From Escherichia coli (GTDB lineage Bacteria > Pseudomonadota > Gammaproteobacteria > Enterobacterales > Enterobacteriaceae): a stretch of DNA of 64,000 nt. The stretch is taken from assembly GCF_003334335.1 (NCBI RefSeq), contig NZ_QOWQ01000026.1, one strand, 5' to 3'. Made by a program: the position numbers and the translations under genes. Below the pieces are notes generated by a model. It searched no databases and was not told the origin of the DNA. It saw only the letters and a program-made list of their open reading frames with translations. Below are positions 19,005 through 20,323 of this stretch, in pieces. Position 1 is the stretch's first letter; each line of letters opens with the position of its first letter.

Positions 19005-19148
19005 TTAGATTGTTTTCTTCGCCCGCAGGCATAACATAGATAAAACTGACACATTACTGCATGAGGCACCAATATAAGGCTCGGCAGAGAAGCGGTATTC
19101 AACGTCAACGTGTTTACTCAGGACTTCTTTACTGAAAATGCCACACAT
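19005..19148 (-). CDS. yobF: Small protein YobF (47 aa), cotranscribed upstream of cspC
   Basis: Not in ORF track. Hand translation: [47 protein letters not shown]; stop lies 12 nt upstream of the cspC start. Confidence 0.8.
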
Positions 19149-19817
19149 AAACAGAACTGTACCTCGTTTAACCCGAAATCTGTTATCACATACAACGTTA
19201 ATTATGGCAAGCCATTTTTAAACATGTCTCGATCAGACGCACAAATCTCGATACGTCTTCCACTTTTTTTGCACACTTATGCAACGGAATACGCGCCGAT
19301 ATATCATTGTGCTTAACCTTGCCAGTTCAGGCAGATACTTAAACTGGCGTATTTTCTAACATAGTTCAATAAGTTCAGTTGTTCCAGGCCAGTGGGAGAA
19401 GTTATTACATAGTGCGTGCAATATCACATTTTTTGCTATGCAATGAATAAAAAGTTATATCACTTTTTCTCATAAAACAGTCAGTTAACGGCTATTAATT
19501 ACCCTAAAGAGAAGTCAATCCCCAAAGGGATTGTAAATTTAAAATAAGAAAAATTGATGAATGAGCAAAAAAATCAAGAGAGAAACGTTTCGCTAATAAA
19601 TAATACCACGCTTAATCACAAATCCGATGTAAACATCCTAATAAATTAATGGGGTAAATATCTTTTTCTGATATCCCGTTACGCAAATAAATAATATGAT
19701 AATTATTTGAAGTCAGACCAGAGTTTTAATTTGAAGCAGTTGCACCATGACAGTGCGTATAATCAGGATGAATTGAGTAACCCTTCAACGACGGGGTTAC
19801 TCAAGATTGAGGAAGGA

Positions 19818-20105
19818 TTATCGTTCGGCGACCAGACGAATAATATCTTCGTCTTCAACCGATTTTTGACTCTCAACGGTCTTTTTATCTGCTTTCTCTG
19901 GTTCGTTTGCTTCGCACAAACGACGTAACAGTGCATTTTGACGTTTTTGCTGATCCAGCAACGCCTCAAGCAGTTCAATCTGTTCGTTAGTCCGTGAACT
20001 GGCACGATTGATAAAAAACCACAAGATGAGCCCGATAAGAAGAACCACCACCGATACAACCAAAGACGCAATGTTCATCACGCCTGAATTTACAACTTCG
20101 TTCAT
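19818..20105 (-). CDS. yebO: Small membrane protein YebO
   Basis: ORF track 95 aa; N-terminal transmembrane helix then charged coiled-coil-like tail. Confidence 0.8.
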   Translation of the reverse strand: MNEVVNSGVMNIASLVVSVVVLLIGLILWFFINRASSRTNEQIELLEALLDQQKRQNALLRRLCEANEPEKADKKTVESQKSVEDEDIIRLVAER

Positions 20106-20179
20106 TTCACCACCTCTGAGTAGAGGCGCTATTCTACCACTGCTGGAGAGGAAGAAAATCTAGTGCTGAAAAAATGATA

Positions 20180-20323
20180 TCACCACGGGATAAACTGGTT
20201 AATGGCACAAATTCCGCTGAAAAATTGTACATCCTGATCGCACATCATGTTGAATACCTGCGCCCAAAGCAGCAAGCAAGCCAACACCACGACAACCAGA
20301 ACGACCCATCGAAACTTTTTCAC
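20180..20323 (-). CDS. mgrB: PhoQ-inhibiting small membrane peptide MgrB (47 aa)
   Basis: Not in ORF track. Hand translation: (M)[49 protein letters not shown] start after GGAG; GTTTAA direct repeats upstream are compatible with PhoP control but not verified. Confidence 0.85.

Follow-up and report, generated by a model that had tools for sequence, protein, structure and literature searches.

The interval from yobF to mgrB very probably holds two well-characterised genes for small proteins, each in a conserved operon, with yebO and a long regulatory spacer between them and no other gene hidden in it. The interval is part of a 64-kb stretch of E. coli chromosome, analysed here in full and referred to as the window, which is collinear with K-12 MG1655 from position 1,888,444 (99.5% identity over window positions 1-31556 and 99.0% over 31557-63047). 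Each of the 5426 complete E. coli genomes searched carries the 2.1 kb around yobF-mgrB, at identities of 95-100%. The original prediction had singled out yobF, mgrB and yoaH as genes below the size cutoff of an ORF track; they are well-known, already annotated small-protein genes of E. coli, and the observation, which is confirmed, is an ordinary one that adds nothing new as stated.

Small-protein genes of the window

Translation of the window recovered the three small ORFs at the predicted coordinates and on the predicted strand (Table 1), and MG1655 annotates yobF (b1824), mgrB (b1826) and yoaH (b1811) at exactly corresponding positions. Within 2.4 kb of the window, 45 ORFs reach 20 aa or more, and an ORF of the size of yobF or mgrB is insignificant on its own; because ORFs of 47-59 aa are common by chance, the identifications rest on family matches and on the MG1655 positions. 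YobF matched positions 1-38 of the 38-position Pfam model PF10736 (DUF2527) with an i-Evalue of 2e-30. MgrB matched the NCBIfam equivalog NF007635 over residues 1-47 of 47 (89.9 bits against a cutoff of 40, 8e-26), and YoaH matched the equivalog NF003476 over its full length, residues 1-59 (114.2 bits against a cutoff of 72, 1.5e-33). The names proposed from the letters alone were right, and the check that had been fixed beforehand, a comparison of the translations with YobF, MgrB and YoaH, came out in favour of the prediction for all three.

Table 1. Genes and sequence features discussed in the text, in window coordinates.
Feature	Position	Strand	Description and evidence
yoaH	6109-6288	minus	59 aa, UPF0181 family; NCBIfam NF003476, MG1655 b1811
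yoaL	13130-13288	minus	52 aa, leader ORF of yoaE; MG1655 b4751, intact here
cspC	18783-18992	minus	cold-shock-domain RNA chaperone, second cistron
yobF	19005-19148	minus	ATG start, 47 aa, DUF2527/2627; first cistron of yobF-cspC; PF10736, MG1655 b1824
yobF upstream block	19149-19250	minus	85-95% identity in all 76 loci and all genera; alignment, promoter scan
12-bp perfect palindrome ATGGCTTGCCAT	19199-19216	minus	within the yobF upstream block
Palindrome TTGCATAAGTGTGCAA, consensus cGCATAAcTGTGCAg	19269-19284		putative transcription-factor site; alignment
Promoter-like island CTGGAAC-N17-TATGTT	19352-19387	minus	candidate distal promoter of yobF, lying about 200 nt before its ATG
TGTTCAnnnnnTTTCATTATTTTGGTGCA remnant	19534-19565	minus	block conserved in other genera, degenerate in Escherichia
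RbsR-operator-like palindrome AGAGAAACGTTTCGCT	19579-19594		agrees with the rbsD operator at 15/16 positions; upstream of yobF by about 445 nt
yebO	19818-20105	minus	95 aa; co-transcribed with mgrB (PMC5861431)
mgrB	20180-20323	minus	GTG start, 47 aa; NCBIfam NF007635, MG1655 b1826
yobI	57671-57736	minus	21 aa; MG1655 b4677, intact here

MG1655 has five protein genes of less than 60 aa in this stretch (yobF, mgrB, yoaH, yoaL and yobI). The original list of genes below the cutoff was correct for its three members and incomplete, yoaL and yobI having been overlooked; an ORF track that starts at about 60 aa overlooks all five annotated genes in 64 kb, of which the first reading of the sequence recovered three. 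The description of yoaL as a leader ORF of yoaE comes from Weaver et al. (bioRxiv 10.1101/511675). A PhoP-box-like direct repeat with one mismatch (TGTTTAACTCCCGTTTA, 13322-13338, minus strand) lies in the leader of yoaL-yoaE, about 35-50 nt before yoaL begins. The small-protein genes of this stretch are not mentioned in "The Cryptic Bacterial Microproteome". The yoaH product is a 59-aa protein of the UPF0181 family.

The MgrB translation has a hydrophobic N-terminal segment (residues 6-24) and cysteines at positions 28 and 39. Lippa and Goulian reportedly found the N-terminal transmembrane segment and the periplasmic C28 and C39 to be needed for inhibition of PhoQ. Variable columns in mgrB fall 26/19/41 by codon position among 74 distinct sequences, a coding-type pattern. 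According to published work, mgrB is transcribed together with yebO as a polycistronic mRNA that CyaR targets, and MgrB is a negative regulator of PhoQ/PhoP (PMC5861431). On the published account, the 47-aa product of the gene found here would be a membrane peptide that acts as an inhibitor of the sensor kinase PhoQ and closes a negative feedback loop on PhoP/PhoQ (PMC5861431; discussion in PMC11429745). A PhoP-box-like direct repeat with two mismatches was also found upstream of mgrB on the minus strand (TAGTTAGGCGCTGTTTA, 20374-20390); this is a weak match, as the pattern occurs 24 times in the window against 14.9 expected.

The yobF gene is found upstream of cspC in 76 Enterobacteriaceae loci as well as in Serratia, Rouxiella and Brenneria, and CspC is 100% identical in nearly all of the 76. 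Published work reports translation of YobF, its association with the membrane and its induction by heat shock and low Mg2+; deletion of yobF causes a growth defect in low Mg2+ that plasmid-borne yobF rescues in trans only with an intact start codon (PMC11429745). The yobF of the window is the first cistron of yobF-cspC and would be predicted to yield a 47-aa membrane-associated protein with the same induction. Pairing of OxyS close to the ribosome-binding site of yobF represses yobF-cspC (PMC10965054), and CyaR targets yobF (PMC5861431); in our reading of this literature, both sRNAs act on yobF, and through it on cspC, as repressors that pair at this place. Three promoters, yobFp1, yobFp2 and cspCp8, have been reported for the operon, which is also described as a mutational hotspot for IS insertions in ageing colonies (PMC13162491). 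Some E. coli genomes in our searches (hits H7 and H16) carry IS1 in or beside the yobF-yebO spacer, which fits the hotspot report.

Several other features of the window were recorded. A manganese (yybP-ykoY) riboswitch in the mntP leader (17018-17114, plus strand) scored 41.6 bits; the Rfam gathering threshold is 45, so a default Rfam scan overlooks it. The overlapping sRNA pair RyeA (plus strand) and SdsR (minus strand) was detected by Rfam at 34656-34800, as annotated in K-12, and sub-threshold Rfam naRNA4 matches on the minus strand at 50648-50685 and 55733-55902 were taken as putative REP-type repeats. Collinearity with MG1655 ends within the yecD/yecE region, and the last part of the window (63048-64000) departs from it. 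Over these last 950 bp, which include a DinI-like ORF (63310-63558), the sequence shows 100% identity to phage P-EibC of E. coli ECOR-9, and this indicates a lambdoid prophage inserted at yecE.

The yobF-yebO spacer

The gap between yobF and yebO (19149-19817) is 669 bp long and has a GC content of 35%, with a 200-bp minimum of 29%, against 50% for the window. Of the two further gaps named together with it, 5269-5689 has 32.5% GC, and 41264-41589, at 47% GC, is not notably AT-rich. The prediction that additional small ORFs or sRNAs might have been missed in these gaps found no support, either when 19149-19817 was compared across genera or when 5269-5689 and 41264-41589 were compared within E. 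coli. The comparison instead favours reading the AT-rich gap beside yobF as conserved regulatory DNA, and further hidden genes in it are not supported.

With YebO as query, 80 Enterobacteriaceae loci were collected, and the order yobH/mgrB-yebO-gap-yobF-cspC is conserved in 76 of them. The length of the gap is bimodal: about 590-745 bp in Escherichia, Salmonella, Citrobacter, Klebsiella and others, and about 1455-1580 bp in Lelliottia, Kosakonia and many Enterobacter, where yebO is followed by a gene for a 330-aa protein of the metallo-beta-lactamase (MBL) fold (3308-4303 in locus L011, 3309-4298 in locus L038). Escherichia, Salmonella, Citrobacter and Klebsiella lack this gene and show no detectable remnant of it. 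It is also found upstream of yobF in Serratia and Rouxiella, which makes an ancestral gene, later lost from the E. coli lineage, the probable reading. A tblastn search for a remnant of it in the E. coli gap found none (E = 7.9).

Aligned across these genera, the spacer shows a series of discrete conserved non-coding islands. The block immediately upstream of yobF, the core of which is retained in Serratia, Rouxiella and Brenneria, contains sigma70-like elements (GAGACA-18-TGcCATAAT) and a 5' untranslated region with GAGG 13 nt before the ATG; the yobF promoter predicted in the literature is TTGCCA-17-GATAAC (PMC3946193). The palindrome ATGGCTTGCCAT in this block does not vary among Enterobacteriaceae and persists in Serratia and Rouxiella, although the adjacent -10-like hexamer does not; the same palindrome opens a mini-ORF of five codons (MACHN). 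A degenerate second copy of the cGCATAAcTGTGCAg palindrome was found at about 19430-19447. In Salmonella, SalCom has a transcription start site 546 nt upstream of a Tn5 insertion within cspC (PMC10965054), a position far upstream of yobF that implies a 5' untranslated region of at least about 190 nt. Published binding data for the "670 bp spacer" comprise multiple RpoD-holoenzyme peaks and H-NS binding (PMC3946193), and an RpoN/NtrC gSELEX peak has been placed in the yobF-yebO spacer (PMC8743547). Readings of the islands by eye as sigma-54, PhoP/ArcA-type direct-repeat, CRP, NtrC or KdgR sites were tried, and none could be supported. Together these features indicate that the 669-bp spacer is the upstream control region of yobF-cspC, with several promoters, H-NS binding and conserved factor sites, although which factor belongs to which island is something we infer.

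That the spacer encodes an unannotated small protein, sRNA or antisense RNA, for example a transcript starting near 19534-19594, is improbable. Such a product might be suspected from the conserved islands that lie far from the yobF start and from a plus-strand start, ATGAC, that is conserved in many genera, but every candidate ORF changes frame and length between species and is broken within Escherichia. Their lengths range from 5 to 30 aa, and the frame switches at a poly-A run; a plus-strand 30-aa ORF at 19557-19649 over a conserved island was rejected on these grounds. No in-frame conserved small ORF was found in the gap across the 76 Enterobacteriaceae loci, and clustering of gap ORFs of at least 12 aa across species recovered only regions that are conserved as DNA. 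Scoring of start codons and Shine-Dalgarno sequences, which had been proposed as a way to reveal further genes, gave only candidates with a weak Shine-Dalgarno sequence that are not conserved; the minus-strand 24-aa ORF at 19307-19233, for example, has lost its ATG at 19307 in other genera and even in E. albertii. A terminator-like hairpin at 19516-19533 could be counted in favour of a transcript; it is found in E. coli only and is lost already in E. albertii. Rfam gave no match in any of the three gaps, whether gathering thresholds or a limit of E <= 0.1 was applied, and the sampled RefSeq annotations place no feature in them except IS1 insertions. A sigmaS-preferred in vitro transcript reported by Maciag et al. 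for the spacer probe set IG1905616_1906284-f (PMC3141248) also speaks for a product; we take the suffix -f to mean the forward strand, and no annotation accounts for this transcript. Reading the spacer as regulatory DNA, the case illustrates that a long AT-rich gap can be conserved for its regulatory content and hold no hidden gene at all.

Probable conservation of yobF as nucleic acid

The label of small-protein gene does not fully explain the conservation of yobF DNA. Among 74 distinct sequences, variable columns in yobF codons 1-38 number 11/10/7 by codon position, and in cspC 0/1/42; the excess of third-position substitutions expected under purifying selection on a protein was not seen in yobF. 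Its third positions are less variable than those of cspC (p = 4e-5), and its first and second positions are more variable (p = 8e-10); Fisher tests of the pattern as a whole gave p = 4e-5 to 7e-10. Between E. coli and Serratia, synonymous and non-synonymous codon changes number 4 and 9 in yobF, compared with 22 and 1 in cspC. The ORF is shortened or frameshifted in 12 of the 76 loci (among loci L005-L089): three Kosakonia species have 15 codons, K. pneumoniae (including the type strain), Yokenella, two Trabulsiella species and Intestinirhabdus have 24, and in four other Kosakonia the ORF is frameshifted yet open. The flat codon-position pattern and the cut ORFs in eight species together indicate that yobF is conserved largely at the nucleotide level. 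Its DNA appears to be constrained as nucleic acid, plausibly as the leader of cspC and as a target of sRNAs or Csp proteins. This constraint would be additional to whatever role the peptide has, and the published trans-complementation argues that the peptide does have one.

A stronger form of this idea holds that yobF is kept chiefly as an mRNA leader, in which either the nucleotide sequence or the act of translation controls cspC and the peptide is secondary or lineage-specific. We consider it possible without favouring it. Besides the flat substitution pattern with its strongly constrained synonymous sites, and the ORFs broken in loci where the DNA remains conserved, it draws on the arrangement of the two cistrons: yobF ends just 12 nt before the cspC start codon on the same strand, and its C-terminus is variable, with other ORF lengths of 38, 43, 47 and 55-56 codons, the longest of which overlaps the cspC start by 14 nt. 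Lesions in yobF have polar effects on cspC (PMC8599858, PMC13162491). Against this stands the need for a start codon when plasmid yobF rescues the deletion in trans (PMC11429745), as well as the conservation of the ORF itself, as nearly all loci share an unchanged ATG and unchanged first 12 codons, and at least 38 codons are open in most species. The Rfam cspA mRNA model (RF01766) reaches over yobF in a match at 18708-19168 that scores 135.5 bits against a gathering threshold of 78, but its well-aligned part is the cspC coding sequence, and further 5', over yobF, the alignment contains many non-canonical pairs and its posterior probability is low. Folding lends the leader no unusual stability, the minimum free energy of the yobF-cspC leader being weaker than that of shuffled controls (z = +1.8), and no homology to the cspE leader was found. 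We regard the substitution pattern as a modest lead and not as an established result. It has a practical side, as yobF is a validated small protein that evolves like a constrained nucleic-acid element, and callers of small ORFs that depend on codon conservation would miss or misjudge it.

An RbsR-operator-like site and comparison with known systems

One island of the spacer, the palindrome AGAGAAACGTTTCGCT, resembles the operator of rbsDACBKR, the 16-bp LacI/PurR-type palindrome AGCGAAACGTTTCGCT. An exact copy of the 14-bp core of the RbsR operator, GCGAAACGTTTCGC, was found upstream of rbsD in MG1655. By our estimate, about 0.0015 sites with at most one mismatch to AGCGAAACGTTTCGCT would be expected by chance in 128 kb (both strands). 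The motif core CGAAACGTTT is present 390-465 nt upstream of yobF in 67 of the 76 loci, and its presence there does not depend on which gene, yebO or the MBL-fold gene, comes next upstream, which ties the motif to the yobF side of the spacer. It was not found in Serratia, Rouxiella or Brenneria, and near 19579-19594 only weak -35/-10 candidates were seen on either strand.

The RbsR gSELEX study of Shimada (2013) is said, in a summary of it, to have yielded five sites, which that summary does not name. The conserved putative RbsR-type operator upstream of yobF-cspC is a reasonable lead, not an established result. The fuller proposal, that 19579-19594 is a real RbsR site controlling transcription into yobF-cspC or into an unannotated spacer transcript, with the companion idea that yobF is mainly a translated cspC leader and less a peptide, we think rather unlikely. 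In a Salmonella screen, rbsR and cspC mutants shared a succinate-growth phenotype, and RbsR acted on RpoS post-transcriptionally by a route that was left open (PMC10965054). If the site were real, ribose sensing would be tied to CspC, which could be the missing link for this shared phenotype.

Compared with the RbsR operator, the candidate site in the spacer agrees at 15 of 16 positions, including the central CG, and has the CGAAAC half-site of RbsR and not the GCAAAC of PurR. It differs from the rbsD operator in its surroundings, as the spacer contains no ribose genes and the nearest start codon is about 445 nt away, and in genera other than Escherichia, Salmonella and Citrobacter its right half-site is degenerate. 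The gene yobF matches YobF/DUF2527 over the whole 38-residue Pfam model, with the same 12-nt distance to cspC and a locus 99.5% identical to K-12. There is no difference in sequence from the known gene; it is the conservation of the family that is not of the usual protein-coding kind, with a C-terminus and ORF length that vary between genera. yoaH is a full-length equivalog of YoaH/UPF0181 in the b1811 position between yoaC and pabB, with no differences. mgrB is the E. coli orthologue of MgrB (NF007635) itself, matching at 47 of 47 positions with the hydrophobic N-terminal helix, Cys28 and Cys39, and it has the same operon partner, yebO, and the same neighbours, yobH and kdgR, with no material difference from the known system.
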